The position numbers and the translations under genes are program-made. Below, in pieces: positions 1 through 57,552 of a DNA stretch of 64,000 bases; positions within the stretch are counted from its first letter, which is position 1; every line of letters starts with the position of its first letter. Below the pieces are notes generated by a model. It was not told the DNA's origin. It ran no database searches and worked only from the letters and a program-made list of their open reading frames with translations. Source of the stretch: Octopus vulgaris (lineage: Eukaryota); NCBI GenBank assembly GCA_951406725.2, contig OX597827.1, forward strand, positions 7,006,001 to 7,070,000. Reading direction: 5' to 3'.

Positions 1-278
1 TGACACAGAATTTCTGCATCCAATATGGCAGCAGTGTACAAGTGTCCTCCCTGTGTAACATTAAACATCAGAGCTGTTACTTCACTACTTCTCTGAAGTA
101 CATTAAACATCAGTTTGCTGTTATCGTCAAGAGATGGTACAGTATCCAATAAGTGTGTATCAGTGACAATATCTCCAATAAAGCTGTGTATATCATTGTT
201 CTCTTTCACATGGTAGGTATGATCCACACACCAACAATTGTTAACCATTAACAACACCAACGAAAGTATGTATAACAT
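1..278 (-). CDS. Protocadherin A, 5' part of ectodomain exon (signal peptide and EC1); runs off the window start
   Basis: Manual translation from ATG at 278: MLYILSLVLLMVNNCWCVDHTYHVKENNDIHSFIGDIVTDTHLLD...LYTAAILDAEILC, paralogous to the five long ORFs. Candidate acceptor AG at 296-297. Confidence 0.92.
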   Translation of the reverse strand, partial: MLYILSLVLLMVNNCWCVDHTYHVKENNDIHSFIGDIVTDTHLLDTVPSLDDNSKLMFNVLQRSSEVTALMFNVTQGGHLYTAAILDAEILC

Positions 279-1089
279 GGTTACAGTCTACAATTCTGTT
301 ACAAGGAAATATATGTATAATGTTTTTGAAACCTATGAAATAATGATTTCTTGAATATTTTCTTGTTATCACCTGTAAACATATGAAAATATAAAAACTT
401 ATTTATGCATTAATAACGATGAAGTAATCTAGGAAATTCTCATCAGTGAAAACTGGTAGCAATACAAAATTTTACCAACATATTACAAGGTACGCAAAAA
501 AAATCTACATTATCGTTCCATTCTTTATCTTTATATGCATTTGATATGATATTAAGTTATTTTCCTCCTACACATTTAATTTATGTTTTAGTGTGAAAAA
601 ATATTACATCAATTGTATGACCTCTTATTCTTTGTAACAGACATTTCTTAAATTTTCATAATTTCAAGAACCTAATTTATACTTCAAATAAAAGAAGGAA
701 GCATTAACATATGTTTGACTGGTCTCCAACTTAATTTATCTTAAATTCTCATTTTTGTACTAAGAAAGGAAGCCTACACTGACAATTAATGAACCTTTTC
801 CACATATCAGTCAAATCTCCCTCAAATCACGAAACTATCGTAATATTTAAAAAGGGGACACATTGGATAATATACATCAAAGTCCAGCATGACACAAGAA
901 ATAAAGATATGATTATTAAGGTTAGAACTGACTTTGATCATTGATCTATCCAATTAGAAACAACTTGAGATTTAAATTTTGATTGGCAGTCAAGTAATAT
1001 ATAATTAGCTTTTCCACTGAAATCATATTTCTATACATTATCCACAATCAAGTCTGATTAATTAATGATAAATGTATTTTTCAGCAATA

Positions 1090-2360: not shown

Positions 2361-3208
2361 TACATTCATAAATACATTATGGTAAGCAGTAAGTTTTGTA
2401 GTCTGAAGAATATCCGGTTAAGCTTTTCAGCAATTTGCTATAGATAGGGAACCTAAATTTTTGCTGTAACATGCTAAGATCTTAATATTCTATGGGGTTT
2501 CGTTTTTATCCTTTATTTTGCGGGGATACTCCCTTGATACTTATAACACATTCACTCTTTTACAACATTAGTACTCCCCAACCGTTCTATTCCTAAAGTT
2601 ATTAAGTTGCAGACTTTGAAAATGGTTCTCTTGCTTCATTGATAGGGTTCGTTTCTTAGATTTACAGTTACTGAGTCACAATCTGTAATTCACGATTTGA
2701 TGAAAAGGAAGTAAAAGATAAATAATAACAGAACACTAATTAAATGAGTTGTTGCCCTTTGATTCTGACCTAAAAATAACAAAAAACAAATAATGTCTGC
2801 CTAACAGTCTAAGCTTAAAAAATAATTTCCTTCATCACATCTCCCTTCTAATTACTAATATTTAGCATCATTCTCACATTAAACATTTGCCAATCTAATC
2901 ACAATTAAACATTCAGTAATTTAGTAATTCGCTGGAACAGTAAAATTACAAATTTTAAAATTTAGTAAAATTACATCTTTCCTAAAATTTACCATTCTAG
3001 ACGGTCTTTGAGAAATAATATTTATATTCCAGATTTGATGAATGGAAATCATGACAAGGTACAAATATCTGTGAAAAATTCTAACAATAAGTAAACTTAT
3101 TCTATTTTTACATCCTGTCTGTAACAATAGAATGAACTTGTGATTAAATAAACCATTTGAAAAACATACAAAGTTTACACAACAGAATAAGTTCTAATAA
3201 GTACTTAC

Positions 3209-3460
3209 CAACAGTTGTCAGTTATTTATATAGTTGTTGCTGTGCTGTTTCAGGGTTTTGGTAACAAAGTTATATCAGTAGCAGAAGTTCTGAGTAGTTT
3301 GGTATGTGACAGTGTTATGTAGTTCTATGGAGTTGGTTGTGTAGTGTGTAATGTGTGTTGTAGCCAATGACAAGCTGTCTTTTATTCCAGTGCAAGGAAA
3401 CGGAAATACAGCCTCCAACTTTTGCAGTTAATGATGGGCTGACTCACAGACTGGTTTACT
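3209..3460 (-). promoter_or_regulatory. Gene A non-coding 5' exon and conserved promoter-like cassette
   Basis: Minus-strand donor CTGTTG|GTAAGT with exon end at 3209. Block TAGCCAATGACAAGCTGTCTTTTATTCCAGTGCAAGGAAACGGAAATACAGC...TGACTCA recurs upstream of B, D, E and F. Confidence 0.75.
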
Positions 3461-4515
3461 TAACCCACACCCACTTACATATATATATGTGTATGTGTGT
3501 TAGTACATAAATGAATAAGGAAGAAATGTCTAATGACTAGAAGGAAGTGGACAGGCAATAAATTCAGTATGGAAAATATTGATTCAAAATAATGTTAATA
3601 TAAATGTGTAAAAGTATAAGGAACCTAACTTTAGTAACTTTATGTTACAAACTGCACATAACTCTCAGAAAAGTTATCATGGAACCAGGATAAAATTAAT
3701 TCATATAAAAGATAAATATTTGGAAATATTATTATATTAATACAATAAAACAGCAGTGGAGTCATAGAGAAAAATATTTTAGAAAATACGAAACTATGGC
3801 TATCAATAAACTTATTCATGTTCAGTAGAAATGTGTGAAGTAGAATACTGAAGAACAGCAGAATAAGAGAATGAGCAGAAAGAATGATATTTACCAAACC
3901 TTTTGCATTTGTTAGGTTAAAGGGGTTTACTTCATTTTGGATTTCATAGATTTCCTCAGAATTAATAATAATAATATTGAAGAATTTCATGAAGAACAGA
4001 AGTGGAAGGCAACTACTAATAGATTTAACTTCTACAAACTACCATAGTAAAATATTCTGTAAATCTCAGATTTTCTAACAAAACATTAACATCTTGGAGC
4101 CTTCGAAGTGAACACTGATAGCATTACACAATATAAATATAAGATTCTTAAGATTTTGCTATTTCAGAAATGGATTTGCAGAGAAGTTAGGATGTTGAAT
4201 AAAATGTTTGCTGTATTTAGTTACAAATTATTATGCACTGTGCTAAAATTGCTATGAGATTAGATTTATTTTATCAATACAATAAATGAGATTAAATTCA
4301 AACCAAATAATTGGGTTGATTTACTGTAAATTAAAATCTAAAAACAGAATCTGAAAACTAACAGAAACTAATGAATGAAACATTATTGATGCGTGTTCTA
4401 CTATGAAATGAAATATTGTTTTGTTATTAATATTTTCTTTTAATGTATTCCTTACTGGAAATGTATTGCCTGTCTTGAGAAAATAATGCTTTGTTATGTT
4501 CTTGAAATTATGCTA

Positions 4516-4847
4516 TTAGACGTCTGTTGCAGATAGAGGAGGAAGTGGAGGTACCTGGGGTGATGAAGGTACCTTTGGTAGTGTTGTTATTTTGGGTACA
4601 GCTGGCAGAGATGGTTTACAGTCTGAAGTAAACTGACTTTTCACTGGTACTGTAGAATGTTGTCCAGTTATGTTAGATGTGGTCCCAGTAATAGTCAAAG
4701 GTGTTTGGTCAATCGAACAGGAAGTGTTATTATCGACATTAGGTTGATGGTGATATCCATATTTGTTATCTCCCCTTGATCTGTTGAGTGTGTTTTGAAG
4801 TTGATTTCTTCTATTCCATGTCTGGTCACTTTGGTAACGACACAGAT
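4516..4847 (-). CDS. Protocadherin B, last exon (proline-rich cytoplasmic tail)
   Basis: Acceptor AG at 4848-4849, phase 1. (D)LCRYQSDQTWNRRNQL...LPAVPKITTLPKVPSSPQVPPLPPLSATDV*; paralogous exon in all units. Confidence 0.88.
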
Positions 4848-5456: not shown

Positions 5457-5607
5457 CTGGTAGTTCCTCATAATGTCCAGCACTACCGACACTCCAGCCA
5501 TGACCACTATCAGTTTGAGATGACAATGTTGACATCTCGTGAAATTGGTCAACACTGTTTAGTTCTCTGTAACCAGGAGACATACTTTCTTCTCTTGGAA
5601 CAAATAT
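5457..5607 (-). CDS. Protocadherin B, 151-nt cytoplasmic exon
   Basis: AG at 5608-5609, GTAAGT donor. IFVPREESMSPGYRELNSVDQFHEMSTLSSQTDSGHGWSVGSAGHYEELP; length identical in six copies. Confidence 0.92.
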
Positions 5608-7133: not shown

Positions 7134-9524
7134 CTGTTGAGGTCTTTTTAAAGTCAGATCATTCCATCTATCAGCTGACATATTTCTGCAGTAAATACCT
7201 TCCCTGTCTTCAATTGGTTGTTGAGATGACTTCAGATTCCTCTCCATTGTGCACTGAACCCCAGGAGGAACACAAGTAGGATCAAATATATATTTTGATT
7301 GCGTGTTTAATGCAGGTGTAACCTTGTGGTACATATCAACACTGTTGTTATAGTTGTTGTCTGTCTGCTTCAGTCTATGAACTATACAGATCGATATAGA
7401 GATCACTATGACAACTGATACGATCACAGCTGCTATAACAATAACAATCATCACATTCAATTGGAGACCATTACTTGATTCTGTTGTTGTCTTTGAAGAG
7501 GTCTTAAATATCTTTGATGTGCTGTTACTAACTGTTAGAGTCAAAGACAAAGTTGTTGTCGATGACAGAACTGGACTGCCACTGTCTTTCACACCTAATT
7601 CCAGTTCATAGAATCCAGCATCATTTTGGTAAAGTGAGCGAGAGAAAGATAAGACACCAGAGTGATGGTTCATTTGAAATAAGTGTTTCTCATTACCTCT
7701 GAGTATTTCATATGTGAGGAAGGCATTGTGTTGACTGTCTCTGTCAGAGGCCCTAACAACTGTGATATCATGGTCAGAGTGGGGATGGTAGTGGACATTA
7801 AGACTGAAAGGGTCAACATTAGGGAAACTGAAATAGGGAGCATTATCATTTAAATCCATCACCTCAACAACAACATTTGCTCTCTTCTCCAGTGATGGTG
7901 TTCCTTTATCTTTTACTAAAACCTTAAACTCATACAGGTTCTTTTCTTCTCTGTCTAGGGACTCAGTTGTGGAAATGAATCCCACATCAGATATCTGAAA
8001 TGGTAGAATATCTTTTCCATTAGATAATAGAGAATAGGTTAATTGTCCTCCATCTCCAATATCTGGGTCTGTGGCATTGACATATCCAACAGGGAAGTCT
8101 TTGTGTTCATTTTCATAGGTGAGAAACTTAAATATGTCCTGACTAAACTGAGGTTGTACATCATTTATGTCAGTAACCAGCACAGAAAACCGTTTCTCTA
8201 CTTTCAATGGAGGTGAACCATTATCTTGACATTTAATGGTGAAATTAAAGGTCTTCTCACTCTCTCTATCTAGTTCACTCTTGACAATAACTTTGTATTT
8301 CTTTTCAGATATTGAGATTAGCTGAATGTATTTATTTTGTAAATGACATTTCACTTGGCCATTTACTCCATTGTCATTGTCGGTAACTTTGACAAAAGCA
8401 ACAAAGCTGTGAATTTGAGTTGCTTCTGAAATGACAGCTGTGTTTCCAGTTGACTTTAAAACAAATTTAACATCAATGTTTGGTGGATTGTTAAGATGAC
8501 TGACACCATTTACAAGAACAGTAGCTCTAGAAATTCTGCGAGGAATACCATTATCTTTGGCTTCAATAAACAATTCATATAATTTTCCAAACTTATATTC
8601 TTTTGTCATAAATAATTCTCCAGTTACTTTATCTAATCTGAACAGAGTTTTAATCTTTTCTGGTGTTTTAGAACTAATTATGTATGAAATTCTTCCATTT
8701 TCTCCCTCATCCATGTCTGTAGCAGAAAAATTCAATATAGGTTTGTTTATTTGGTGCTTATCATTTACAGTTATATTGTAGGTACTCTGAGAGAATACAG
8801 GTGAGTTATCATTTTTGTCTTCCACTAAGATATTTATATCCATTACACCTTCCTTTGGTGGTGTTCCCCCATCTGTAGCAATTAGTTGGATATGATAATT
8901 AGATTTTGTTTCTCGGTCTAAATTCTTTTCCAGAACTAGCTCAAGTAAATTAGTTTCACTTAAATCATGTGATAAGACCAATTTAAAAGGAATATCTTCA
9001 TCCTCTTTCAATTTATAATTGATCTTTGTGTTCTGAATACTGACATCTTTGTCAATGGCATTTGGAAGTGTTTCTTTTCTTCCTATCAATGCATTTTCAT
9101 CATATTGCAGGTGAACTTCCTTATTTGGAAATATCGGAGAATTATCATTAGCATCTTCTATCATAACTTTGATTTCCAATATCTTGAGAAAAGAATGGCC
9201 ATGCTGAACTGCTATTTCCAATATTCTGAAGCATTCCACATTATATTGACACAGAATTTCTGCATCCAATATGGCAGCCGTGTATATTCGTCCTCCAGGT
9301 GTAACATTAAACAACTGAACATCTCCATCTGTATTACTCTGAAGTACTTTAAATTTCAGTTTGTTGCTATTATCCTGAGACTGTATATTATCCAGTAAGT
9401 GTGTATCAGTGACAATATCTCCAATATAACTGTTTAAATCATTGTTCTCTTTCACATGATAAATATGATCCACACACCAGGAGCTCTCAGCCATCAACAG
9501 CACCAACAATACCATTGACAACAT
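7134..9524 (-). CDS. Protocadherin B, ectodomain/TM exon (signal peptide, 6 cadherin repeats, TM); spliced product ~957 aa
   Basis: ORF 7074-9539 with cadherin motifs (DANDNSPIF, LDRE, ATDPD, DLNDNAPYF) and hydrophobic TM. Acceptor at 9559-9560, first ATG at 9524, phase-0 donor CAG|GTGAGT at 7134. Exon sum stays in frame. Confidence 0.95.
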
Positions 9525-9749
9525 GACTACAATCTTCAATTGTCTTTGATATATTAATCTGAAATGGAAATAGATATATAGAGGATAACATCCAATATAC
9601 AGAATATATCTCTAGATATTGCTTCCATACCAATACATCATAATTTATGTCAAAATATCAATTACCATCATTAAGTAGCATAAATTCTTGCAAAATTTTT
9701 TCTTATTGATCAGTGACAATGAGAATTGTGAAAATTTGATTACCAACTG

Positions 9750-10915: not shown

Positions 10916-12640
10916 AAACAAATTTTTTTTTTTTACTCTGCAAAGAGATAGACTTTTCATAACTTAGCACTAGACATGTAAACTTCAAGAGAAGAGTGGA
11001 AAATCATGTCTAAAAAGTTATTTTCTTTAAGTTGAATTAGCCCTTGAAAGAAGAAAATCAGGTATTTCAGTTGTGGGTTTGTACCATAGAAGCTGAAAGT
11101 GTTTGACTGTCAGTGTCTCCAAGTTTGAAAGAAGGAAGGAAGAATATTACATCCAAGCCAGAGACCTGAATTAAAAGCCCCTAACAGAGAATATATCACT
11201 GAAGACACACAAGCATCCGATGGCGATGTTATATAGACAGAAAAAGTTTTTGTAACTTTACTCTGTTACAGCTCATCTCTGGCAATAAAACAATGATTAT
11301 GTATTGCCAGTGATCTTCTCTTGACAGGGCAACCAACAACATTGCTTTTACAAAAGGGACACTCCAACATTTGCCATGGGATTATGGATTTGCCAGAACT
11401 CTCCATGAGATACATTACTATTACAATTACAGAAATATTGAAAGTTGATATTTATGAGAATCCTCAATATTTTATATGGTTCTGTGATCCTATAGAGGAT
11501 CTGCTAGCAACAGAACACAGCAATGAGTTCTACAAGTTTTAATCAGTACATGTCTTGCAAACAACTTGCACATGCAAGTGCTACCAGTCATAAAACTCCA
11601 CATACAGGAAGCCAGCTAGTGTATGGGGTCATCAGGAGAGAATGCGCGCCGTTTCGGGGCCTACCGCTTGACATTATCATGAAAACAGTCTTGTATTAAA
11701 ATCAACCCATACATACTCTACATCCAAAGTAGCTGTTCAAACTGCTAGAAATAAGGGATAAATCATCCTCAAATCACATTCTACCCTTTTGGAAATGGAT
11801 TCATTGAGTAAGGTAGAACCGACCTTTCATAGCATTGGAATCAGGCAAAATGATCATAGTCGGAAGGCTTACTTGATGAGCGGTGACCTGGGTCTAAACA
11901 ACAGCAACAAGACTAACACCTGAATTTCTTCCACAAATGAGTGAGTCCTAGGAGTCAATTTATCTGTTATGAGTAGTTGACAAATTTTCTTGCCATTAAA
12001 AAAAAGGAACACATTATACAAAGTAGCCTTTGATATTACTAAAAAGATAAGATGACTATGGCTGCAATGACTTTGATCATTGGATCTTTTCAGACAAGTT
12101 GACCAAGGGTTAAACTACAAGTTCAATAACTGCAACAGATAAATAACCTCACAACTGGTGATGAGAAATCAGAATAGCCTCCCTTGATTATTAAAAGTCT
12201 ACTTTTCTACTCTGACCTCAGTTCCTGTATAGATGGAGTATTTTGAAGATAATATCCTACTTAACTTATACACAAAGGAAAAAAATTAATCAAGATATTC
12301 TATTGTAAACCATTTTCTTTGATTACAATAATATCCGATTATTAACCAGTTTGTTGGCTCAGGTAACAATATATATAAAAAAGAATGATAGTAAAAAATA
12401 TTGATGGTTTAAAGATGTTAAATATTTGAAAAAATAACAGAACTTATTTAAAAAGTATTTTGTAGTGCTGGTATTTATATATACTATAGTATGTGACAAT
12501 TTAATTGTCTATTAAAGTGAGAGAATAGTATTCAAGTTAACACATTGTCTGTTATTCAGAAAGTTATTTTTATCAACATAAATAACAGAGAGATTACCAA
12601 ATGACTAAAATACAGATAAAAAGTTTTAATAAGTACTTAC

Positions 12641-12895
12641 CAACAGTTGTTATATATTTTTAAAGTTGTTACTGTACTGTTTAAAAGTTCTGGCATCAAA
12701 AAGTTGTAGTAGTAGCAGGAATTCTGAGCAGTTTGACATGTAATAGTGCTATGTAGTTCTATGAAGTGGGCTGTGTAGTATGTAATGTGTGCTGTAGCCA
12801 ATGACAAGCTGTCTTTTATTCCAGTGCAAGGAAACGGAAGTACAGCTTCCAGTTCTTGCAGTTAATAATGGGCTGACTCACAGACTAGTTTACTT
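12641..12895 (-). promoter_or_regulatory. Gene B non-coding 5' exon and conserved promoter-like cassette
   Basis: Donor CTGTTG|GTAAGT at 12641; CCAAT at 12798, ACGGAAGT and TGACTCA. Splicing to 9558 creates an in-frame TGA upstream of the ATG, so the exon is UTR. Confidence 0.75.
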
Positions 12896-13767: not shown

Positions 13768-14069
13768 TTAATGTTCGATATTTGTTGGAGGCGCCTGATG
13801 TATCGAAGGTACTTTTGGTAGTGTTGTCACCTTAGGTACAGATGGTAGAGGTGGTATACAGATTGCCATTGCTACTGAAGGTGGTTGTTCAATTATGTTA
13901 GATGTGGTACCTGTTATAGTCAAAGGTATTTGGTCAGGGCAACAGGAAGTGTTCACGTCAACATTAGGTTCAGAGTTACATCCATTGTTATCTCCCCTTG
14001 ATCTGTTCAGTGTGTGTGGTAATTGGTTTCTTGTATTCCATGTGCGATCACTTTGGTAGCGACACAGAT
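13768..14069 (-). CDS. Orphan module C, last cytoplasmic exon (open, splice site intact)
   Basis: AG at 14070-14071. (D)LCRYQSDRTWNTRNQLPHTLNRSRGDNN...PPLPSVPKVTTLPKVPSIHQAPPTNIEH*. Confidence 0.7.
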
Positions 14070-15110
14070 CTGTAGAAATAGGGATTGAAGATTGACATCT
14101 CACTCAGAATTATAATAAAAATGTCAGTAAGTTCTGTAGTCTCTTGGTTACAACAAATATATATGGAAACATTTATTTTGAGTGATTTTAAGATATCTTT
14201 GGTACAAAATTTATTGAAAGAAATTCCTAAATTAAATTCATTTTTTTACAGTATTCTTTTATTTGATGATATATATATGTTTAAGTTCCTTGATTAAAAA
14301 ATATCAATATAATATCTAACCAGTGTAAAATAGAAACATGTTTGAGAAGTTTGCTTCGTATCCATTTATTTCCTACTCATAGAAATTGTTCAGCTAAATT
14401 TGATGATCTTTTATGTCATCTTTTTTTCAAGGAGCAGTTTGATGCATTGGGGAACAGTCGATGGCATTAGAGAGCATTGAAGGCGGCGAGCAGGCAGAAA
14501 CATTACCGCGCCATGCGAAATGCTTAACGGTATTTCGTCTGTCGTTACGTTGTGAAGCTGCTGGAGACTTTGGTCAAGCTTTGGGTGGTGTTGCTGCTTG
14601 GAGGCCACATATGTGTGAAAGCAGGACTCAGTACCTTGCCATATCTCCAGGAAGAATCAGAAGTGGTTGTAGAAGAAATTCTGTGATTTCATCAGCTCCG
14701 ATTTCTGTCTCCCACCCAATTACACATATTGTAATCTTATTGGCACTATGAGTGGGGCAAGGCCAAAAATGGTATCAACTACTTTTCTTGCAACACCAAG
14801 GCCAATCTGGTGACCAAGATCAAGGAGGTGTTTCAAGATCTACTCGGTGACACAGTGAGGAACACATTTGCCAGGTTCTGGAGTTGTCTTGAAGCCATGG
14901 TGGAAGCCAAGGAAATAGTTGGCATTGCAACGAGTATCCAACCATAGAAACCAAGCCAAAAAGGAAACTAATGAGCGAACACACCAAACTGACTGAGGTA
15001 ACCTCTCCAACCCATGCCAGCATGGAAAGTGGATGTAAAAAACCATGATGGTGAGGATTTACATAAATTATGATCTGCCACTGCAGAGATATTAGGCATA
15101 TTTAACTGAC

Positions 15111-15261
15111 CTGATAGTTCTTCATAGTGTCCAGCATTGCTGACACTCCATCCATGACCACAGTCCGTGGTAGATGACAATGTTGACATCCCACTGAAGG
15201 GGTTAGTGCTGTTTAGTTCTTTATAATTTGGTGACATACTTTCTTCTCTTGGAACAAATAT
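15111..15261 (-). CDS. Orphan module C, 151-nt cytoplasmic exon (open, splice sites intact)
   Basis: AG at 15262-15263, GTCAGT donor. IFVPREESMSPNYKELNSTNPFSGMSTLSSTTDCGHGWSVSNAGHYEELS. Confidence 0.7.
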
Positions 15262-15729
15262 CTATAAAAAAACAAAAAAACAAATGAGAAATAGAAAAAT
15301 ATTCTGAAGAATTGCAATAGATAAATGGTAATAGGTGATTCAATGAATAAACCAAAACCTATAACTTCCACATTAAGTTCCCTTAAAGAATAATTAAATT
15401 TCGTCACAACAGCAAAGGTTGAAATATTAATTAACGTATGTTATAGGATTCAAAGAATAAAAATGAAGTTATTCAATATTAAAAGAATTTTGAAAGAATA
15501 TAGCTATTTATGCTTTTATTGATTCTAAATGTCTGATGCAATATTTGAAATAAAATATATCAAAGAATTTTACTTTTTACAAGCTCTGATAAATTTTTAG
15601 TCTTTATGAAATAATTTCAATGTAGAATAAACATTTTGTTCACCCCATCTCAAATTTTGAAAAAAACCCCAGGCAAATAGGACAGTTTAATTAGAAAAAC
15701 AACTCTGAATAGATTATTAAAAATCCCAC

Positions 15730-16165
15730 CTGTTGATGATCTCTTAGGCTCAGATCTACCCATTGGTCAGATACACTTCTGCAGTGAATATCTTCTCTGT
15801 CTACCATTAGTTGCTGAGATTTCTTAAGATTTTTTTTTCCACTGTGTACTGAACCCCAGGAGGAACACAGGTAGGGTCAAATATATATTTTGATTGGCTG
15901 TTTAATGCAGGTGTAACCTTGTGGTACATATCAACAATGTTGTTATAGTTGTTGTCTGTCTGCTTCAGTCTATGAACTATACAGATCGATATAGAGATCA
16001 CTATAACAACTGATACAATCACAGCTGCTATAACAATAACAATCATCACATTCAATTGGAGACCATTACTTGATTCTGTTGTTGTCTTTGAAGGGGTCTT
16101 AAATATATTTGATGTGTTCTTACTAACTGTTAGAATCAAAGACTAAATTATTGTTGATGACAGAA
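15730..16165 (-). pseudogene. Orphan module C, truncated remnant of the ectodomain exon (end of EC6, TM, juxtamembrane)
   Basis: Homology to paralogs stops at ~16165. TTG>TAG near 16143-16145, +2 frameshift in the T run at ~15830-15838, donor GTGGGA at 15730. No EC1-EC5 or promoter block found before D's last exon. Confidence 0.85.
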
Positions 16166-17675: not shown

Positions 17676-18010
17676 TTAATACAGTGTTTCCGTAGAGTTA
17701 CTGTGCATATTTTTTACTATGGAAACTGAAGGTACCTGAGGTATTGAAGGTACTTTTGGTTGTGCTGTTGCTTTAGGTACAGCTGGTAGTGCTGGTTTAC
17801 TGTTCGAAGTAAAGTGACTTGTCATTAGTACAGTAGATGGTTGTTCAGTTATCTTAGATGTATTATCAAATATAGTCAAAGGTATTTGGTTATCAGTGGT
17901 ATTGTCACCATTAGGTTGATATCCATTATTATCTCTCTTTGAACCACTGGGCGTGCATGGAAGTGGATTTCTCCTGTTCCACGTATGGTCACTTTGATAA
18001 CAGTACAGAC
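17676..18010 (-). CDS. Protocadherin D, last exon
   Basis: AG at 18011-18012. (G)LYCYQSDHTWNRRNPLP...QIPLTIFDNTSK... continues in frame into ORF 17676-17879. Confidence 0.85.
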
Positions 18011-19209
18011 CTGGAAGTAGATCGATTTTTAAAAAGTTATTAAAAACGAATTTGATAAAAATTACACTGAAGCTATTTTTTCTAAATTAGTTTTCCATTT
18101 ATTAAAAAATTTACTTAATTCCTGTTAAAACTATGGCTGCATATTCTATGATACTTAGAACACTGACAGTCTTTAGTATGCACAGAAATTAAATATCTAA
18201 AGACAAATGATGATTTCATAAATAAAATATCATATGGAAAATAAATTACTAGAATTAATACTATTTATATATTTAGTAGACTGATTGTGTAAACCTCTTG
18301 ACTTTTTAGTGTCTAACTATTTCAAAATTTATCAGTCGTGGTCAAAATGCTTCTCATAAGATACATGTAAAAATTAACACTTCCTTTCTCCAAGCTTAGA
18401 TTCGAAACCAAATCTGAGGAATCTCACTTGTCTGAACCACCACTGACCAAACAAGCATGAAAGAAATTTTCTTCATCTTGTCAAAAAAAAAATATTGATC
18501 ATCTCCCTTCGACCTCAGCCATGTCAGGTGAAGATCAAATGGACAGGAGCTGACCTATTTAAGCACAATGTATATCTGTCCTTCTAGCTGCCACGATATG
18601 TTATAAATACCTTGGTCAGTAAAAGGACAGATAGAAAAGATCTGGGACTCAGAGTGCATAAGATAGCTGACCAGTATTTTCTCTGATGAACAATGCACAC
18701 ACAGACAGTATTCACTTTTTACCCTAGCATATCCACAGATGTACATTGTCGAATTCCTCGCTGGCTCATTGCAGTTGGCAACAAACTGATGTAGTGAAAA
18801 CTTATGCATTACACCAGCAAATGCAAGTCCCACAAATAAATCATTTAAACTATAAAAAGATGTTGTTCCTTTGTTCACTTTGAAGGCATCCACATGCCTA
18901 TCACATCTGTTTACCTCAACACATTCTGATACACACCTTAACCACTACATACATGCTGCCCAAAAAGTAATTATGAGTGACTCAAGAATGTTTTAAACAT
19001 TCTACCTGCTGGGTTTTGAGAACTACAAAAATGATGACAAAATAAATGCATTTAATGAGATGAAATCAATCAGTATTCAGTGAGTTCACCTGTGGCTGTA
19101 TATATGTATTCTTACTTAATATATCTTTTAAAATGTATGTATATTGTGGGTCTTGAACTTAAGAAAATATCTTTTGGCTCTTATGAAGAGCAGCAAAAAG
19201 AACTTAGCC

Positions 19210-19860
19210 ATCACTAGTATTACGTAACATAGAATCGAACTGCGGCTTTATATAGCTATGGTACGACCTCACCTGGAATTTGCATCGCCGGTCTGGAACC
19301 CCTATCTTGCACAGGATATTAATCATCTGGAAGCCATTCAGTGACGTGCAGCCAAGAGAATACCCTCCATCAGGCATCTGCCATATTCTGAACGCCTTAC
19401 TATCCTGGGCATGGACACATTGAGACTCCAATGTCTGGCAGCTGACTTGGCAGACACCCATAAAATTATTAACCATCTTACAAACAATAACTCTGAGCAC
19501 CTTTTCAAACACCACCTGTCTAACACCCATGGACATGTTTACAAAGTCAGAAAATAGCTCAGCTACCATGACTTTAGGAAACATTTTTTCACGCTAAGAG
19601 TTGCTGAAGCATGGAACAAACTGCCAGCATCAGTTGTTAGTTGTCGGAGCACTGCATCCTTCAAAACTTCCATGCTTTCTGAGATTCGCCAACACTACAC
19701 CTGATTTTCTCCCCTCCATACATATGCAAGCATGTATCTGACTCATACACTGTTCACTTCCTAGGCATTTGTACATTACTGCATATACTTTATACACACT
19801 ATCTGACAAGTTGTGGTGCACCTGAGCACTGTATACAATAATTTCATTATTATTATTATT
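19210..19860 (+). mobile_element. CR1/L2-type LINE 3' fragment (longest copy)
   Basis: Degenerate LYIAMVRPHLEFASPVWNPYLAQDINHLEAIQ*RAAKRIP...RVAEAWNKLP and (ATT)n tail. Confidence 0.85.
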
Positions 19861-19888
19861 GAAGAGAGAGACAGTATTTTTAACTAAC

Positions 19889-20039
19889 CTGGCAGTTCCT
19901 CATAGTGATCAGCACTACCAACAACCCAGTCATGCCCACTATCAGTATGAGTGGACATTGCTGATATCTCATTGAATTCGTTAGGTCTGTTTAGCTCTTG
20001 GTAACCAGGAGATGAACTTTCTTCTCTTGGGAGAAATAC
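19889..20039 (-). CDS. Protocadherin D, 151-nt cytoplasmic exon
   Basis: AG at 20040-20041, GTTAGT donor. VFLPREESSSPGYQELNRPNEFNEISAMSTHTDSGHDWVVGSADHYEELP (manual translation). Confidence 0.9.
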
Positions 20040-20299
20040 CTAAAGTTTGAGACGTTATAATGAAGAGAAAATTTGAAGAAAGAAAAAAAAAAACAAATAC
20101 ACAGTTCAAGAGTAAAGCCAAAACCTGCAGCTGACATATATTACTAAGTTCCATAAAAGTATTTTCAGCCAACAAACATTAAATTAAACAAAATACATCA
20201 CTGTATGTGATGCTTATAAAGTACAGATAGAAATAAGAAAAAAACTACAGATGATGGTATTTGATAATTTAAGAATTTTGTAAGACTATATGGATTTAT

Positions 20300-20617
20300 A
20301 CGAGATATATCACGTGATCACGTGACCGACCAGACCATCAGATGTTGTTACACATCGCTGGTCACAATGCGTTCGCATTGTTTTAGCCTTCGAATGATGC
20401 CACTCCGCTGGCTAAGCGAGCAGGCCAACAGAAGAAAGAGTGGGAGAAAGAGTGGTGAAAGAGTACAGCAGGGATCACCACCCCCCTGCCGGAGCCTCGT
20501 GGAGCTTTTAGGTGTTTTCGCTCAATAAACACACACAATGCCCGGTCTGGGAATCGAAACCGCGATCCTGGGACCGCGAGTCCGCTGCCCTAACCACTAG
20601 GCCATTGCGCCTCCACA
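20300..20617 (-). mobile_element. tRNA-derived SINE (family 2 head, different body)
   Basis: Shares its head with 16750-16946. Confidence 0.75.
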
Positions 20618-20858
20618 AGATATATACATCAATGAAACAGTGAACAATAAAGTATAAAAAATTTAAAACCAATCATTTCAATCAATACACAAATCAATGA
20701 CTAATGCAACAGAATGATCAGGGCTTGTCAAATATCTCATCTTCAAGGAAGAGTTTATCTTCAAGTCATTTATACTGACTCACATTTTGGAAAAATTCTG
20801 ATATAGGACATCTTTTTTTTTTTAAAGTAATTCTAAAAATATAACTGAAAAATCTCAC

Positions 20859-23255
20859 CTGATGATGTTTTACTGAAGCTGGTTCAACCCGTCTGTCATT
20901 TGTCATAGTCCAGCAGTGAATATCTTCTCTGTCTACCATTGGTTGTTGAGATTTCTTCACATTTCTCTCCAATGTGTACTGAACTCCAGGAGGAACACAA
21001 GCAGGATAAAACATATATCTTGATTGCATATTTAATGCTGGTATAACACCATGGTACATATCAACACTACTATTATAGTTTCTATTTGTCTGCTTCAGTC
21101 TATGAACTATACAGATCGATATAGAGATCACTACGACAACTGATACGATCACAGCTGCTACAACAATAACAATCATCACATTCAATTGGAGACCATTACT
21201 TGATTCTGTTGTTGTCTTTGAAGGGGTCTTAAATATCTTTGATGTGTTCTTACTAACTGTGAGAGTCAAAGACAAAGTTGTTGTCGATGACAGAACTGGA
21301 CTGCCACTGTCTTTCACACCTAATTCCAGTTCATAGAATCCAGCATCATTTTGGTAAAGTGAGCGAGAGAAAGATAAGACACCAGAGTGATGGTTCATTT
21401 GAAATAAGTGTTTCTCATTACCTCTGAGTATTTCATATGTGAGGAAGGCATTGTGTTGACTGTCTCTGTCAGAGGCCCTAACAACTGTGATATCATGGTC
21501 AGAGTGGGGATGGTAGTGGACATTAAGACTGAAAGGGTCAACATTAGGGAAACTGAAATAGGGAGCATTATCATTTAAATCCATAACCTCAACAACAACA
21601 TTTGCTCTCTTCTCCAGTGATGGTGTTCCTTTATCTTTTACTAAAACCTTAAACTCATACAGGTTCTTTTCTTCTCTGTCTAGGGACTCAGTTGTGGAAA
21701 TGAATCCCACATCAGATATCTGAAATGGTAGAATATCTTTTCCATTAGATAATAGAGAATAGGTTAATTGTCCTCCATCTCCAATATCTGGGTCTGTGGC
21801 ATTGACATATCCAACAGGGAAGTCTTTGTGTTCATTTTCATAGGTGAGAAACTTAAATATGTCCTGACTAAACTGAGGTTGTACATCATTTATGTCAGTG
21901 ACCAGCACAGAAAACTGTTTCTCTACTTTCAATGGAGGTGAACCATTATCTTGACATTTAATGGTGAAATTAAAGCTTTTTTCTCTTTCTCTATCTATTT
22001 CACTCTTGACAACAACTTTGTATTTCTTTTCAGACATTGAGATAAGCTGAAGATATCTATTTTGTAAATGACATTTCACTTGTCCATTTACTCCACCGTC
22101 ATTGTCAGTAACTTTGACAAAAGCAACAAAACTGCCAATATTAGATGCTTCTGAGATGACAGCTGTGTTTCCAGTTGACTTTAAGACAAATGTGACATCA
22201 ATTTTGGGAGGATTGTTAAGATGACTGACACCATTTATAAAAACTGTGACTGTTGATGACATAGGTGGTTTACCATTATCTCTGGCATCAATAAATATCT
22301 CGTAAATCTCACCAAAATTAAATTCTTTCTTCAAAAATAGCTCCCCTGTTGCCTCCTCTAATTTAAAGCTTTCTTTTATCCTTTTAGGTGTTTTAGCATT
22401 ATTAAAGACATAAGAAATTCTTCCATTTTCCCCTTTATCTAAGTCTGATGCAGAGACCTTAACAAGAGGCTTGCTTCTCTGGTATGTATCATTTATAGTG
22501 ACATTGTAAATATTCTGGGAGAAAACAGGGAAATTATCATTTTTATCTCCCACTAATATTTTTATATCCAATACACCTTCCTTTGGTGGTGTTCCTTGAT
22601 CTTTGGCAATTAACTGAATATTGTACATATCTTTTGTCTCACGGTCTAAGGAACCTTCTAAAATTAGTTGCAATAAATCAGTTCCACGTAACTTAGAAAC
22701 AACCAATTGAAAAGGGACATTTTCATTTTCCTTCAGTTGATAATTGAGTTTAGAATTCCGAGAGCTAATATCGTTATCAATCGCATTTGGAATGATTTCT
22801 TTGATTCCTTTTGTCACACTTTCATCAAATGACACTTGAAATTCCTTATTTGGAAACATGGGAGAATTATCATTGACATCTTCTATTATAACTTTGATTT
22901 TTAATATCTTGATAACAGAATGGCCATGTTGAACTGCTACTTCCAAAATCCTGAAGCATTCCACATTAAATTGGCACAATGTTTCTGCATCCAATATGGC
23001 AGCTGTGTACAGCTGTCCTCCAGGTGTAACATTAAATAACTGAACACTTCCATCAGTACTACTCTGGAGTATTTTAAATGTCAGTTTGCTTCTATCATCT
23101 TGAGTCTGTATATCATCTAGTAAGTGCGTATCAGTGACAATATCTCCAATATAATTGTTTATATCATTGTTCTCTTTCACGCGGTAGCTATGATGCACAC
23201 ACCAGCAGCTTTCAGTCATTAACAACACCAACAGTATCACTGATAACATCTTCAT
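20859..23255 (-). CDS. Protocadherin D, ectodomain/TM exon; spliced product ~960 aa
   Basis: ORF 20766-23330; acceptor at 23275-23276, ATG at 23255 (MKMLSV...), donor CAG|GTGAGA at 20859. Confidence 0.95.
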
Positions 23256-23541
23256 TAGTATAGGATTTGCCAATCTGAAAGAAAAGCTAAATTGTATATA
23301 AATCATTCCCTGATAGAAAGTGAAATACAAATATATCTAGTGATTAACAATTCGAGTTGCTAACTCATAATCATCTCAAAACATAATGTACGTAATATCA
23401 AATAGCAATCAGAGATTTGGATATTAACTACTTTATTTGACCAATAATGTGCCTCAAATTCTAGCTTAAACAAATAAAGAACTTGACAGCTGTATTATAC
23501 ATTAGATGTTCATAAGTGTATTATTGCAACATTCACTCTCC

Positions 23542-30713: not shown

Positions 30714-30818
30714 TACTTTTTTGCTAATATTCTTTTTCTCCAAATGATAAACTGTGAAATATTACTAAATGTTTGAATAACAAATATACACAAGAAATAA
30801 CTTGTAATGAATACTTAC

Positions 30819-31025
30819 CAACAGTTGCCTGTTGTTTAAACAGTTGTTACCGTTGCAGCTGGAGTTCCGAGCAGTTTGGTGTGTGAAAGTATTAAGTAGT
30901 TCTATGGAGTTGGTTGTGTAGTATGTAATGTGTGTTGTAGCCAATGACAAGCTGTCTTTTATTCCAGGGCAAGGAAACAGAAATACAACCTCCAGTTCTT
31001 GCAGTAAATGATAGGCTGTCCACAT
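30819..31025 (-). promoter_or_regulatory. Gene D non-coding 5' exon and diverged promoter-like cassette
   Basis: Donor CTGTTG|GTAAGT at 30819, CCAAT at 30941. TGACTCA and CGGAA motifs are altered and the UTR is shorter. Confidence 0.72.
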
Positions 31026-31151
31026 ACACTTACGTATCCGTGTTGTAGGTGTATATAAAATGTGCGTAAATGAACAGTGAAGAACGATGGTTAGCTAGAA
31101 TTTCAAGGATAGGCAATAAATTCTGTTTGGTTAATAGTATTGAATATATAT

Positions 31152-36056: not shown

Positions 36057-36352
36057 CTATAAATTGGTGATACCTAAGGTATTGAAGATACTGTCTGGCA
36101 GTGTTGTTACTTTAGGTACATCTGGTGGAGGTGGATTACTGTATGAAGTAAACTGACTTGTCATTGGTACTGAAACTGGTTGTTCAGTTAAATTCCATGT
36201 GGTACCAGGTATTTGGTCAGGATAACAGGTCGTGTTTATGTCAGCGTTATGGTGATAATATCTGTTATTGTTATCTCCCTGTGATCTGTTCAGTGTAGGT
36301 GAAAGTTGATTTCTCCTGTTCCATGTAAGTTCACCTTGGTAACGGCACAGGT
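36057..36352 (-). CDS. Protocadherin E, last exon (C-terminal end frameshifted relative to paralogs)
   Basis: AG at 36353-36354. Manual translation (D)LCRYQGELTWNRRNQLSPTLNRSQGDNN...PPPPDVPKVTTLPDSIFNTLGITNL*. Confidence 0.82.
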
Positions 36353-36541
36353 CTGGAAATAAATAGATAATTTATCTATCAAAGAGTTCACTACCTAGAA
36401 TGCATTTCAGACAAACCAAAATGATGCTGTTTTACTAAATTGGTTCTTTGTAGCTAAAATTTTAATATTTTTATAATTTAACAGCAAAATGTCTGTGTAT
36501 TTATATACATTGCTCATAATATTGCTGAATATATTGAAATA

Positions 36542-36800
36542 TGTGGAGACGCGTGGCTTAGTGGTTAGGGTGTCAGCTCCATGATCTTAAGATTGTGGTT
36601 TCGATTCCTGGACCGGGAGACGCATTGTGTTCTTGAGCAAAACACTTCATTTCACGTTGCTCCAGTCCACTCAGCTGGCAAAAATGAGTAATGCTGTGAT
36701 GGACTGGCGTCCCATCCATTTGGGGGAACACATACGCCATAGAAACCAGGAAACCGGGCCCCTGAGCCTGGCTAGGCTTTAAAAGGGCACATTTATTTAT
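36542..36800 (+). mobile_element. tRNA-derived SINE
   Basis: Head TGTGGAGACGCGTGGCTTAGTGGTTAGG...TTCGATTCC; tail AGAAACCAGGAAACCGGGCCC...GGGCACATTTATTT shared with the 16630 copy. Confidence 0.7.
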
Positions 36801-37003
36801 TTATATTGAAATATAGAAAATGAACTCACTTTTAAACTAAAAAGATGGACAATCAGTTGATCGAATTAGTATTTACATCTTTGGTGTTATAATTATATCA
36901 ATCCCTTATTTAATATTCATTTCAACTTTTGACCTCCTAGTATTGTTGGAGATATATGGCATACATCTTAGCAAAATAGAAATATTCAACATTTCTAACT
37001 TAC

Positions 37004-37154
37004 CCGGCAGTTCCTCATAGTGCCCAGCATTACTGACACTCCAGTCATGACCACTATCAGTGTGAGATGACAATGTTGACATCTCACTGAATTGGTCAGC
37101 ACTGTTTAGGTCTCTGTAACCTGGAGACATGCTTTCTTCCCTTGGAACAAACAT
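37004..37154 (-). CDS. Protocadherin E, 151-nt cytoplasmic exon
   Basis: AG at 37155-37156, GTAAGT donor. MFVPREESMSPGYRDLNSADQFSEMSTLSSHTDSGHDWSVSNAGHYEELP. Confidence 0.92.
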
Positions 37155-37359
37155 CTAAAATTATAAATTCAGTGGATCTTCATAATGTTCTGGACATTCA
37201 AAAATGAAAATATAAAATATAAACCAGAAATTAAAATATCAACAAACCATCAAGTGGAATATTAATTTCTTAACTATGGTACAAGTCATAGGCTAAAAAG
37301 TTGAACTCTAACATAGACACAAGACAGTAATCAGAATATTTGAACCAATCATAGCATAT

Positions 37360-37588
37360 TTAACCCTTTAGCATTTAAACCGGCCATATCCAGTCAAAAG
37401 TATTCTGCCTATTTTATGTTCAAACTGGCCAGATCTGGTCTCTCACACCAAACCTACAATATCGTTTTAAAAATTAACAGCGACCTCATCAAAATCTCAT
37501 AGCTCCAAGATAATGCCTGATTAGCTCAAAACAATGTAGATGAAGAAGCATTAATTTTGGCAGAATAATGCGAACATTAAAGGGTTAA
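37360..37588. mobile_element. piggyBac-type MITE with TTAA target duplication
   Basis: TTAA-CCCTTTAG...TAAAGGG-TTAA. The paralogous intron of gene B (~5785-5810) shows the empty site. Confidence 0.8.
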
Positions 37589-37697
37589 TGTTCTTTGTCT
37601 CCAGAATATCTACAAAATTACTATCTCTTGACACAGACTACTATAACTGTTGAATTGGCAATGATTAAAAAAGTTTAAAGAAGAAAATAAGACTCGT

Positions 37698-38170
37698 ATT
37701 ATATCCTGAACGCCTTACTTCCCTGGGCATGGATACATTGAAACTCCGATGTCTGCCAGCTGATTTGATAGACATCCATAAAATTATTAACCATCATACA
37801 AACAATAACTCTGAGCACCTTTTCAAACTCCACCTCTCTAACACCTGTGGACATATTTACAAAGTCAGAAAACAGCACAGCTCCCATGACTTTCGGAAAC
37901 ATTTTTTCATGCTGAGAGTTGCTGAAGCATGGAACAAACTGCCGGCATCAGTTGTTAGTTGTCGGAGCACTGCATCCTTCAAAACTTCCATGCTTCCTGA
38001 GATTCGCCAACACTACACCTGATTTCCTCCCCTCCATACACACACAAGTATGTATCTGTCTCATACACTGTTCCAGACATTTGTACATTACTGCATATGC
38101 TTTATATGCACTTTCTGACAAGTTGCGGTGCACCTGAGCACTGTATACAATAATTTCATTATCATATTAT
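37698..38170 (+). mobile_element. CR1/L2-type LINE 3' fragment
   Basis: ORF 37729-38022 is similar to the other copies; ATT-rich tail. Confidence 0.82.
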
Positions 38171-38998
38171 AATTTAGCTAGCCAAGTTCAATGAGGGTAT
38201 GAATAACACTGTAACAAAATTTTTTATTTTTTCTGTCTTTGGTCAGTAATTATTATATCCTAATTGCTTCTATCTAGAAATCAAACGAAATGACTACTAT
38301 TCCCTTCAAATTTTGCTTTTGACATCAATGTTTTCAAACTCACCGATTTTCCATTACATTTCAGACACATTTCAGACACTTCACTGAGTGGCTGAAGCAG
38401 AACTATCTTTACAGCAAATGTTCTGCTCAATACCACAGGTTTGCTTCTCAGTTGTTTGGCCTTGACCGCTTGAGCATATCTCTTAGTGGCATATCTCGTA
38501 TTCAATATATATTTGTAGGTTCTGAATTTCTATTGCAGCTCTTACATGGTGTGGTTTAATAGTAATACAAGTGAATATCGGTAAAGATTGTAGTCAGAGA
38601 AATGGTGGATGATGTCTAAGAAGATATACTACTATAGGGGATCACTTGATTGAGTGGTGACTTACTGAAATCGAAGAGGTTGATCTATTTATAACATCAT
38701 TTACTACAGCTTCAAAATTTTTAGTAATCTTTAAACGCTACATAGAGATTACTGTCTTTGGTTGGAACAAAACTACGATCTGCAAAAGCAACTGTGTTTA
38801 AGGAAGATTATCTAGAAACCATTTCTGCAATTGAAATCTCAGATTTTGAGGTTCACACTTCACCAAGGTAAAAGTATATGTTACTTTGAATATATCTTTA
38901 CATTTTAAAGGCAAAATTCTGTTTTTAATCTGTACAGAAGAAGCTGCATTTGAAATGATTAAAAATTAATATGCAAAATGGCAAAAATTTCATCTTAC

Positions 38999-41389
38999 CT
39001 GATTGTTTTCTCTTGAAGCCTGATCATTCCATCTATAAGACATAGTTCTGCAGTGAATATTGTCTCTGTCTACCATTGGTTGTTGAAATTTTTTCACATT
39101 TCTCTCCATTGTGTACTGAACTCCAGGAGGAACACAGGTAGGGTCAAATGTATATTTCGGTTGGATGTTTAATGTAGGTGTAACCTTGTGGTACATATCA
39201 ACACTGTTGTTATAGTTGCTGTCTGTCTGCTTCAGTCTATGAACTATACAGATTGATATGGAGATCACTATGACAACTGATACGATCACAGCTGCTATAA
39301 CAATAACAATCATCACATTCAATTGGAGACCATTACTTGATTCTGTTGTTGTCTTTGAAGGGGCCTTAAATATCTTTGATGTGGTGTTACTAACTGTTAG
39401 AGTCAAAGACAAAGTTGTTGTCGATGACAGAACTGGACTGCCACTGTCTTTCACACCTAATTCCAGTTCATAGAATCCAGCATCATTTTGGTAAAGTGAG
39501 CGAGAGAAAGATAAGACACCAGAGTGATGGTTCATTTGAAATAAGTGTTTCTCATTACCTCTGAGTATTTCATATGTGAGGAAGGCATTGTGTTGACTGT
39601 CTCTGTCAGAGGCCCTAACAACTGTGATGTCATGGTCAGAGTGGGGATGGTAGTGGACATTCAGACTGAAAGGGTCAACATTAGGGAAACTGAAATAGGG
39701 AGCATTATCATTTAAATCCATAACCTCAACAACAACATTTGCTCTCTTCTCCAGTGATGGTGTTCCTTTATCTTTTACTAAAACCTTAAACTCATACAGG
39801 TTCTTTTCTTCTCTGTCTAGGGTCTCAGTTGTGGAAATGAATCCCACATCAGATATCTGAAATGGTAGAATATCTTTTCCATTAGATAATAGAGAATAGG
39901 TTAATTGTCCTCCATCTCCAATATCTGGGTCTGTGGCATTGACATATCCAACAGGGAAGTCTTTGTGTTCATTTTCATAGGTGAGAAACTTAAATATGTC
40001 CTGACTAAACTGAGGTTGTACATCATTTATGTCAGTAACCAGCATACAAAACTGTTTCTCTACTTTCAATGGAGGTAAACCATTATCTTGACATTTAATG
40101 GTGAAATTAAAGCTCTTCTCACTCTCTCTATCTATTTCACTCTTGACAACAACTTTGTATTTCTCTGCAGATACTAAGATTAGCTGAAGATATCTGTTTT
40201 GTAAATGACACTTCACTTGTCCATTTTCTCCACTGTCAGTGTCAGTAACTTTGACATAAGCAACAAAACTGTGAATTTTAGATGCTTCTGAGATGAAAGC
40301 TGTTTTGTTTCCTGCTGACTTTAAGATAAATTTTACATGGATTTTTGGTGGATTATTAAGGTAACTGATCCCTTTAATAAGGATGGTGGCTGTTGAAGAC
40401 ATAGGTATTTTTCCATTATCTGTGGCTTCAACTAACAATTTATAGATTTTTCCAAATTCAAATTCTTTCTTCACAAATAATTCTCCAGATGTCTGATTTA
40501 AAATAAAGAATTTCTTATCTTTATCTAAGGTGTCAGGACTGAATGTATACAGAATTTGTCCATTCATACCCTGATCTACATCTGTAGCAGTTAAATTCAA
40601 AATAGGTTTATGCAAATTCTGTGTATCTTTTACTGTGACATTATAAATACTTTGGGAGAATACAGGTGCATTGTCATTCTTATCTCTTACTAAAATATGG
40701 ATGGCCATATCTGCTTGTTTTGGAGGAGATCCCCCATCTGTAGCCATTAGAAGAAGATCGTAATTTTTCTTCATTTCTCTGTCTAGTTTTCCATTCAGAA
40801 TTAATTCTATTTTACTTTTCCGGTCAGAAATTTTTATTACCATTAATTGGAAAGTTTTATTAATATTATTCCTCAGTTCATAAGAAAGCTTTGAGTTCTG
40901 AATACTGACATCTTTGTCAATGGCATTTGGAAGTGTTTCTTTTCTTCCTTTTAATGCACTTTCATCAAATGCTAACTGAAATTCTTTGTTTGGGAAAATG
41001 GGAGAATTATCATTGACATCTTCTATCATAACTTTGATTTCTAATATCTTGAGAAAAGAATGACCATGGTGAACTGCTATTTCCAATATCCTGAAACATT
41101 CCACATTATATTGACACAGAATTTCTGCATCCAATATGGCAGCTGTGTGCAGTTGTCCTCCAGGTGTAACATTAAACAATTGAACACTTCCATCAGTATT
41201 ACCCTGGAGTATATTAAATGTCAGCTTGTTGCTGTTATCTTGAGACTGTATATTATCCAATAAGTGTGTATCAGTGACAATATCTCCAATAAAGCTGTGT
41301 ATATCATTGTTCTCTTTCACATGGTAGGTATGATCCACACACCAACAATTGTTAACCATTAACAACATCAATAATATTAAGGTAAACAT
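38999..41389 (-). CDS. Protocadherin E, ectodomain/TM exon; spliced product ~945 aa
   Basis: ORF 38990-41440; acceptor at 41422-41423, ATG at 41389 (MFTLIL...), donor CAG|GTAAGA at 38999. Confidence 0.95.
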
Positions 41390-41880
41390 CTCTTTAATTT
41401 TCTTCAATATATTCCACTGGTCTGAAATGGATATGTACATAGGAAACAGATATGGTTATACTCTTCTAATGTAATTATATAAAAATAAATTATGCATACT
41501 GTAGCAAGGTCAAAGTAATCTGAACATTAATAACAATTACAGAATACATTAACCCTTTGTCTTGATGAATATAATTTTGATAATATAGAAGCTACAGTAT
41601 AGAATACTGTTAATTACAGTTAATGTTATGCAGTGGGAAAGAAATTGAAATCACATGGTCAAGAAGTGACCTTGTTAACTAAACAGTTATGCCTGCACCT
41701 ACATTAAGCTTGCATGCTCATTGCACAATCTATAAATATTCTGTATTTTCCATTATTCATTAGTTAGTGTAGGGATGTCTAAAAACATGCATGCACACAC
41801 AGTTTAAAATATAAGCATATAATCTTGCTTTGAAATGGAACTTAAGGAATCTAACAGAATTTCTCAGCAGCATGGTATAA

Positions 41881-44255: not shown

Positions 44256-44515
44256 CAAGTTGTTTCTGCTTCTACCAGTTGCTTCTACAGTTGTAACTGT
44301 ATTGTTCCAGTGTTCTGGTAACGAAGTTGTAATAATAGTAGGAGCTTGGTATGTGACACACACTGTTACATAGTTCTATCAAGTTGGTTTGTGTAGAATG
44401 TAATGTGTGTTGTGGCCAATGACAAGCTGTCTTTTATTCCAATGCAAGGAAACGGAAGTACAGCCTCCAGTTCTTGAAGTAAATGATGGGCTGACTCACA
44501 GACAAGTTTACTCCC
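44256..44515 (-). promoter_or_regulatory. Gene E non-coding 5' exon and conserved promoter-like cassette
   Basis: Donor CTTG|GTAAGT at 44256; CCAAT at 44416, ACGGAAGT and TGACTCA intact. Confidence 0.75.
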
Positions 44516-46052: not shown

Positions 46053-46366
46053 TTAGTTGTTTAGTGTTGTTACAGGAGGTACTGGAGGTACCCTTGGCAG
46101 TGTTTTTACTTTTGGTACAGCTGAGAGAGGTACTTTACTACTTGAAGTAAAGTCGTTTGTCCTTGCTACTGTAGATGGATGTTTAGTTATACTCGATGTG
46201 GTCCCAATTATAGTCAAGGGTATTTGATGATCTTGATGATAGGAAGAGTCCATATCAACCTCTGGTTGAAAGGGATAGCCATTGTTATCTCCCTTTGATC
46301 TGTTCAGTGTGTGTGGAAGTCGATTTCTCCTAATCCATGTAAGATCACTTTGGTAACGGCACAGAT
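46053..46366 (-). CDS. Protocadherin F, last exon
   Basis: AG at 46367-46368. (D)LCRYQSDLTWIRRNRLPHTLNRSKGDNN... in frame with ORF 46053-46253. Confidence 0.88.

Positions 46367-57518: not shown

Positions 57519-57552
<34 letters not shown>

Follow-up and report, generated by a model that had tools for sequence, protein, structure and literature searches.

A conserved 260-bp block upstream of tandem octopus protocadherin genes as a probable promoter and first-exon module

Nearly all members of the three vertebrate protocadherin (Pcdh) clusters are preceded by the CSE, which combines a CTCF site and a CGCT box (PMC7811963). Octopuses carry 149–168 Pcdh genes each (PMC9795677), and cephalopod Pcdh genes have been described as products of full gene duplication with conversion, with concerted evolution proposed for coleoids (PMC9068888). 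In octopus, about 21 Pcdh genes are expressed per neuron, some of them cell-type-specific (PMC9712504), and vertebrate-like regulatory processes are expected for the cephalopod arrays (PMC10658181). In the odorant-receptor arrays of ants, read-through and antisense RNA lead to one functional receptor per neuron (PMC12393541). Here we analysed a stretch of 64,000 nucleotides of Octopus vulgaris DNA, referred to as the window, in which a preliminary description had placed a conserved promoter cassette upstream of every gene as a possible analogue of the vertebrate CSE.

Seven protocadherin units, A to G, lie head to tail on the minus strand of the window (Table 1). Each unit follows the order block, intron, large exon (EC1-6 and TM), 151-nt exon and last exon, with 0.95–5.1 kb between the last exon and the next block. 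The cadherin repeats, the TM and the start of the tail all fall on one large exon, as expected of a protocadherin. For gene B, this exon matched Pfam Cadherin with E = 4.5e-72, its PDB matches (42 sequences) were mostly protocadherins with a CELSR1 chain as the top match, and it was 100% identical to a protein named Octopus vulgaris protocadherin, whose 957 residues fit three coding exons of the gene. Among 120 listed relatives, 17 were at least 69% identical and came from three Octopus species and Argonauta, the remaining listed ones being 45–55% identical; on these comparisons, the array is one small octopod protocadherin subfamily. All five units having an intact 5′ end in the window carry the block at the equivalent place. 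The claim that it precedes every gene therefore holds for five of the seven units: unit C has lost the block together with most of its large exon (EC1-6), exons 3 and 4 still being open, and the region upstream of gene G lies off the window.

Table 1 Coordinates of the block copies, gene units and associated features in the window.
Feature	Position	Strand	Remarks
Gene A, start of large coding exon	1..372	-	acceptor before 372, ATG 278
Block copy 1, upstream of gene A	3199..3457	-	exon ends 3209
Splice donor of non-coding exon	3203..3209	-	last exon base 3209; joined to acceptor before 372
27-bp invariant core, copy 1	3363..3389	+	CCAAT 3364-3368 on +; AATAAA 3386-3381 on -
Gene B last exon and 3′ UTR/spacer	3470..4847	-	stop 4518
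Distal 18-bp island	3783..3800, 13204-13221, 55059-55076		437 nt upstream of core in copy 1, 420-437 nt in 3/5 units
Gene B exon 3	5457..5607	-	151 nt, equal length in 6/6 units; joint 4847-5457 in X1, X5
Gene B large exon (signal peptide, EC1-6, TM, tail start)	7134..9558	-	ATG 9524
Block copy 2, upstream of gene B	12632..12891	-	exon ends 12641
Unit C, 5′-truncated remnant	13770..16165	-	TM piece with 2 gaps, exon 3, exon 4
Gene D coding exons	17678..23274	-	
Block copy 3, upstream of gene D	30810..31033	-	exon ends 30819; shorter, without TGASTCA and CGGAAR
Gene E coding exons	36059..41421	-	
Block copy 4, upstream of gene E	44246..44509	-	exon ends 44256
Gene F coding exons	46055..50757	-	
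Block copy 5, upstream of gene F	54491..54749	-	exon ends 54500
Gene G coding exons	56163..61425	-	block, if any, beyond window end (64000)

Public fused proteins of 1897–6653 aa were taken as prediction artefacts. The public gene D model reaches the unit C exons through a donor inside gene D's last exon, and the unit C remnant, a possible alternative C-terminus, is present in O. sinensis models too. The public gene E model includes a small coding exon at 30730–30764, about 55 nt past the gene D first-exon donor. A reading of genes D and E as one locus, hinted at by names of the type 'isoform X1/X2', was rejected because the models are separate; the O. sinensis isoforms all use gene D's exon. 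The protein encoded by the last exon of gene B (4518–4847) is 98–99% identical to those of gene A and of paralogues outside the window; last-exon DNA identity among in-window units is only 0.74, and the likeness to gene A and these paralogues reflects recent duplication or conversion. The first intron of gene F holds ten tandem 232-bp units, nine of them identical (51135–53522), and that of gene A holds decayed transposase-like frames (973–2592), presumably mariner-like, which are very deep in a DNA-like run, X18. A dispersed repeat of about 430 bp with a central microsatellite occurs in both orientations (26860–27670, 30290–30714, 31151–31543, 35422–35851, 45666–45931 and 62521–62947), one copy sitting just upstream of block copy 3, which is without the distal island.

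The repeat itself, with its invariant core, was borne out. An exact 27-mer occurs at 3363, 12797, 30940, 44415 and 54656 (n = 5, 64-kb window), no further copy was found in the window at up to 3 mismatches, and shuffles yielded none (0/100). A profile built from the five copies matched only those five (E from 1e-69 to 3e-87), the next match having E = 2.1. The length first given, ~120 bp, did not stand: conservation extends over about 260 bp (approximately 3457–3199 in copy 1), comprising a motif half (3445–3390), the core (3389–3363), an A/C-rich, G-poor leader and a donor after 3209. In 30-base windows across the five copies, identity over 3463–3299 was 0.80–0.99, as against 0.35–0.6 in the flanks and 0.65–0.76 in EC2-3 coding DNA, with a peak at the core (0.96), lower values in the distal leader (0.66–0.75), 0.80 at the donor and a drop in the intron. 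The block is thus better conserved than its flanks and EC2-3, as had been claimed, but that comparison left out the coding DNA of EC5-6, which outranks the block with identities of 0.97–1.0 and invariant runs of 213 and 203 nt.

A separate 18-bp island stands farther upstream of the core in unalignable DNA, with 0 occurrences expected by chance; it is a candidate distal promoter site or 3′ UTR element. The exact 27-mer had 0 matches in metagenome and viral contigs, collections without animal genomes. Upstream ATGs occur in three of the five block copies, and we accordingly make no claim of ATG depletion. The likeness of blocks was uninformative when compared with that of the downstream gene (rho = −0.65, 112/120 permutations) or the upstream gene (rho = 0.33, 30/120).

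Contigs from three RNA-like runs (X1, X5 and X10, from three studies) and from the DNA-like run X18 were placed on positions 1–9700; the RNA status of X1, X5 and X10 is a guess, and such contigs show neither strand nor transcript start. The joint between exons 4 and 3 of gene B (4847–5457), with CT..AC ends, was present in X1 and X5 and absent from X18, by which X1 and X5 behave as RNA. An acceptor is present 7–34 nt before the ATG in all five genes checked (B, D, E, F and G), an arrangement that needs a non-coding exon upstream. Such an exon is provided by the block. One X1 contig joins 3207 to 364 through 8 intervening letters; 6 of these begin the gene A exon and 2 are an insertion, and the sequence fits splicing from donor 3209 to the acceptor that precedes 372. 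The joint was seen in one of the three RNA-like runs, among the matches listed. The X5 and X10 contigs end at 3208 and 3207, at the donor. Since the last exon of gene B is 98–99% like its counterparts in gene A and other paralogues, the contigs may derive from a near-identical paralogue outside the window.

The block thus includes a spliced non-coding first exon. The five donors proposed earlier (Table 1) were confirmed on the minus strand, 121–159 nt from the core, and the first introns measure 2836, 3082, 7544, 2834 and 3742 nt, in agreement with the 2.8–7.5 kb first given for the distance to the coding exon. Use of donor 3209, or of the equivalent donor of a near-identical paralogue, in the X1 contig answers the objection that no transcript might use these donors. 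For gene A, several AG candidates precede the ATG (372, 333, 296 and 288), of which the contig uses the most upstream. Twelve bins are wholly intronic; five were empty in all three RNA-like runs, five were high-depth repeat and two held traces, and we do not count them as evidence. With donor use, acceptors before the ATG and a depth unlike that of a high-copy repeat, the description of the block as the 5′ module of each gene holds.

We then considered where transcription may begin. The X5 contig covers 3208–3380, and the X10 contig runs unbroken over 3207–3448 and then for 66 or 121 more letters towards a masked stretch. The CCAAT box falls inside both contigs, which makes for a poor fit to a simple upstream NF-Y box. 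Transcription would start either at the upstream edge of the block or farther upstream, with RNA arriving from there. One candidate start lies near 3452, at an initiator-like sequence that follows T/A-rich DNA by about 30 nt and is degenerate in copies 3–5. A second candidate is the GTCATT of the core (3371–3366, minus strand), which is initiator-like; a start there, at 3368, would coincide with the switch in composition to the A/C-rich, G-poor leader. An acceptor at the start of the X5 contig (3380, next to an AG) was dropped, the branching of paralogues explaining the contig end and X10 reading through it. Placing the start by X1 depth failed because paralogues pile up on the core.

RRCCAATSR is the NF-Y consensus, CGGAAG/A is ETS-like and TGACTCA is the AP-1 site, and all three had been named as components of the cassette. 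Searching with consensus strings in copies that are not independent of one another, we found the NF-Y consensus in all five (0.03 expected per 161 bp), CGGAAR in four and TGASTCA in three. IRF-like motifs (3/5 copies) and TALE-like motifs (5/5 in the core, 0.61 expected) were not trusted.

Taken together, we consider the block to be a duplicated promoter/first-exon module for shared regulation of the subfamily, with a probability of about 0.6. Complete genes would have been duplicated whole, each carrying along a proximal promoter and a non-coding first exon; transcription would start in the block or at its upstream edge, at candidates such as those near 3452 or 3368; and splicing at the conserved donor would connect the leader with the large coding exon, as in the one contig. 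Common transcription factors, for which NF-Y, ETS and AP-1 are candidates only, may read these near-identical promoters, so that the genes could be licensed together in the same cells, and the block would be kept alike by purifying selection on core and donor, aided by gene conversion. Three groups of observations support the module: the donor joint, the contigs ending at the donor and the acceptors before the ATG; the peak of conservation at the core amid unalignable introns and spacers, with a silent identity of 0.58 in EC2-3; and the 18-bp island, together with the joint loss of block and 5′ exon in unit C.

The core can also be read as the end of the preceding gene, a possibility that the preliminary description did not raise. 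On the sense strand it contains AATAAA, which would serve as the upstream gene's distal poly(A) signal, with cleavage 10–30 nt further on, atop the start of the next gene. Polymerase would then cross the next promoter and may enter its first exon, giving spliced read-through and promoter occlusion. In all five copies the AATAAA is preceded by a TGTA 24 nt upstream with a U-rich tract (0.40–0.52) between, the upstream context looked for in a poly(A) site. Poly(A) sites also carry a G/U-rich downstream element, and this was not found: the DNA 21–60 nt downstream is A/C-rich, with a T+G content of 0.18–0.28. For two of the five upstream genes (F and G) the core AATAAA is the only one between stop and block; the other three (B, C and E) have an earlier one, and with a rate of 0.875 AATAAA per kb, finding none in 1.5 kb is unremarkable. 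RNA-like contigs lie between the gene B stop and the block in all three runs (3513–3989 in X1, 3662–3907 in X5 and 4102–4369 in X10) and would, with the unbroken X10 contig across the block, suit transcription through the spacer, but unstranded contigs could equally be long 3′ UTR, antisense RNA or overlap, and a contig spanning two genes proves no single transcript. Annotation points the same way in that Pcdh genes joined by read-through transcripts had to be separated in an octopus single-cell study (PMC9712504), the public gene E model ends on an acceptor some 55 nt past the gene D donor and the gene D model enters the unit C exons; against this, the public models are possibly prediction artefacts, given that a 6653-aa fusion exists. 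On balance we regard termination at the core as unlikely, if the alternative to be taken most seriously. By analogy, such a fused terminator/promoter might take part in gene choice, the polymerase of an active gene silencing or out-competing its neighbour, a proposal we find more doubtful still. If it were true, transcriptional interference along the array, in place of CTCF loops, would shape the Pcdh sets of single octopus neurons, and read-through RNA would make up part of the count of ~21 Pcdh per neuron.

Much of the likeness among copies may, on another account, be neutral: an ordinary promoter overwritten by conversion, in which nothing but the donor and a handful of bases is important and selection does not act on shared regulation. 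The coding exons give this account its force. Four-fold silent-site identity was 0.88 in EC1, 0.58 in EC2-3, 0.87 in EC4 and 0.97 in EC5-6, and invariant silent columns numbered 18/22, 5/22, 21/26 and 82/88 in the same segments, compared with invariant columns of 85/106 in the block and 46/50 in its core. Silent sites in EC1, EC4 and EC5-6 are therefore as alike as the block, so that identity alone proves no selection and selection is not needed to explain it; the use of conservation as the sign of a shared element, as first proposed, fails on this point. In a FastTree analysis of 21 sequences (up to 800 residues), EC5-6 proteins grouped by species, with identities of 0.99–1.0 among the window genes, 0.98–1.0 among Argonauta paralogues and 0.81–0.83 between the two, and this grouping together with the high silent identity leads us to conclude, from sequence comparison, that the coding exons are under gene conversion, or concerted evolution. 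EC2-3 keeps old paralogues, gene B having a counterpart in O. bimaculoides at 0.92; at 7500–8200 and in the paralogues, EC5-6 is homogenised within species and EC2-3 is old and diverse. Copies 1 and 5 of the block share an identical run of 98 nt, also in line with this account.

Against a mostly neutral origin, the other nine of the ten copy pairs have identical runs of only 27–47 nt, the block forms an island with a peaked profile in unalignable DNA (introns 1–3 and spacers have no 12-mer common to three or more units), and the separate 18-bp island, which we infer to be too short for conversion, persists in three of the five units. These three observations make selection on the block still likely, and we give the wholly neutral account a slim chance.

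A functional analogue of the CSE would have promoters compete for a distal enhancer through an anchoring protein, with stochastic choice in each neuron. That the block stands at one position and in one orientation ahead of every clustered Pcdh gene invites the idea, and regulation of this kind has been proposed for cephalopods (PMC10658181). The block's composition speaks against it. No copy contains a CGCT box (0/5), and the best CTCF-like sites have 3–4 mismatches to a 14-mer consensus, which is window background (57 sites at up to 3 mismatches, 293 at up to 4); each copy holds 1–4 CpG. Nor do the units share constant exons, no enhancer was identified, and expression of ~21 Pcdh per neuron, some cell-type-specific (PMC9712504), lends stochastic choice no support. 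The CSE analogy is consequently not supported as a mechanism; judged by these motifs, the block is not a CSE and is like one in position only, and a functional equivalence by other means seems to us distinctly improbable.

That the block is a dispersed repeat or mobile element sitting near genes, as its near-identical short copies and the other dispersed repeats in the window might suggest, is very improbable, since its five copies all stand at one place per unit with none elsewhere in the 64 kb, it is without Pol III A/B boxes (by consensus) or a match in Rfam (0), and its summed X18 depth of 148, which gives an order of magnitude only and no copy number, is like that of coding bins (118–242) and far below that of the repeat at 973–2592 (1719–4410). 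A structured RNA was ruled out by the same lack of Rfam matches, by compensatory changes at none of 32 predicted pairs and by a fold no better than that of shuffles in any of the five copies (z from −0.51 to 0.95).

In full-text searches of the literature on cephalopod and octopus protocadherins and promoters, which turned up PMC6339937, PMC9699675, 10.1101/2021.11.29.466909 and 10.1101/360206 among others but did not reach the genome paper of 2015 or the cadherin review of 2017, we found no description of such an element. The block is an apparently undescribed promoter/first-exon module, for which duplication and conversion account in part. It is nothing unusual for duplicates under conversion to have conserved promoters, and the interest of this one rests on the putative regulatory step. 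It gives a defined module of about 260 bp, spliced to the coding exon, that is usable for regulation studies of the independently expanded cephalopod arrays, and it indicates that a CTCF/CGCT element is not what the genes of this subfamily have in common.

How the module compares with known systems depends on the feature chosen. Like the vertebrate CSE, it is non-coding, conserved and found at a constant position ahead of every gene in a tandem Pcdh array. The vertebrate element has a CGCT box and CTCF site, whereas the octopus block has neither; unlike the CSE, the block lies 2.8–7.5 kb from the coding exon, behind a non-coding exon, with ~260 bp of continuous similarity; and unlike the vertebrate clusters, the octopus units are full genes without constant exons, the block being known from one subfamily. 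Chelicerate sDscam units splice to common exons, and the octopus units are complete genes. Both systems are recognition genes of invertebrates in which every tandem unit has a promoter of its own (PMC5775551, PMC9258826). The ant odorant-receptor arrays are alike in having head-to-tail duplicates, RNA from intergenic spacers and possible spliced downstream transcripts, and differ in that the octopus case is known from unstranded contigs alone and concerns many Pcdh per neuron (PMC12393541). As in the concerted evolution proposed for coleoid Pcdh (PMC9068888), the membrane-proximal repeats are homogenised and EC2-3 is divergent; the octopus array departs from that picture in that the copies of its 5′ module match one another as closely as the converted exons do, unlike its introns and 3′ spacers.
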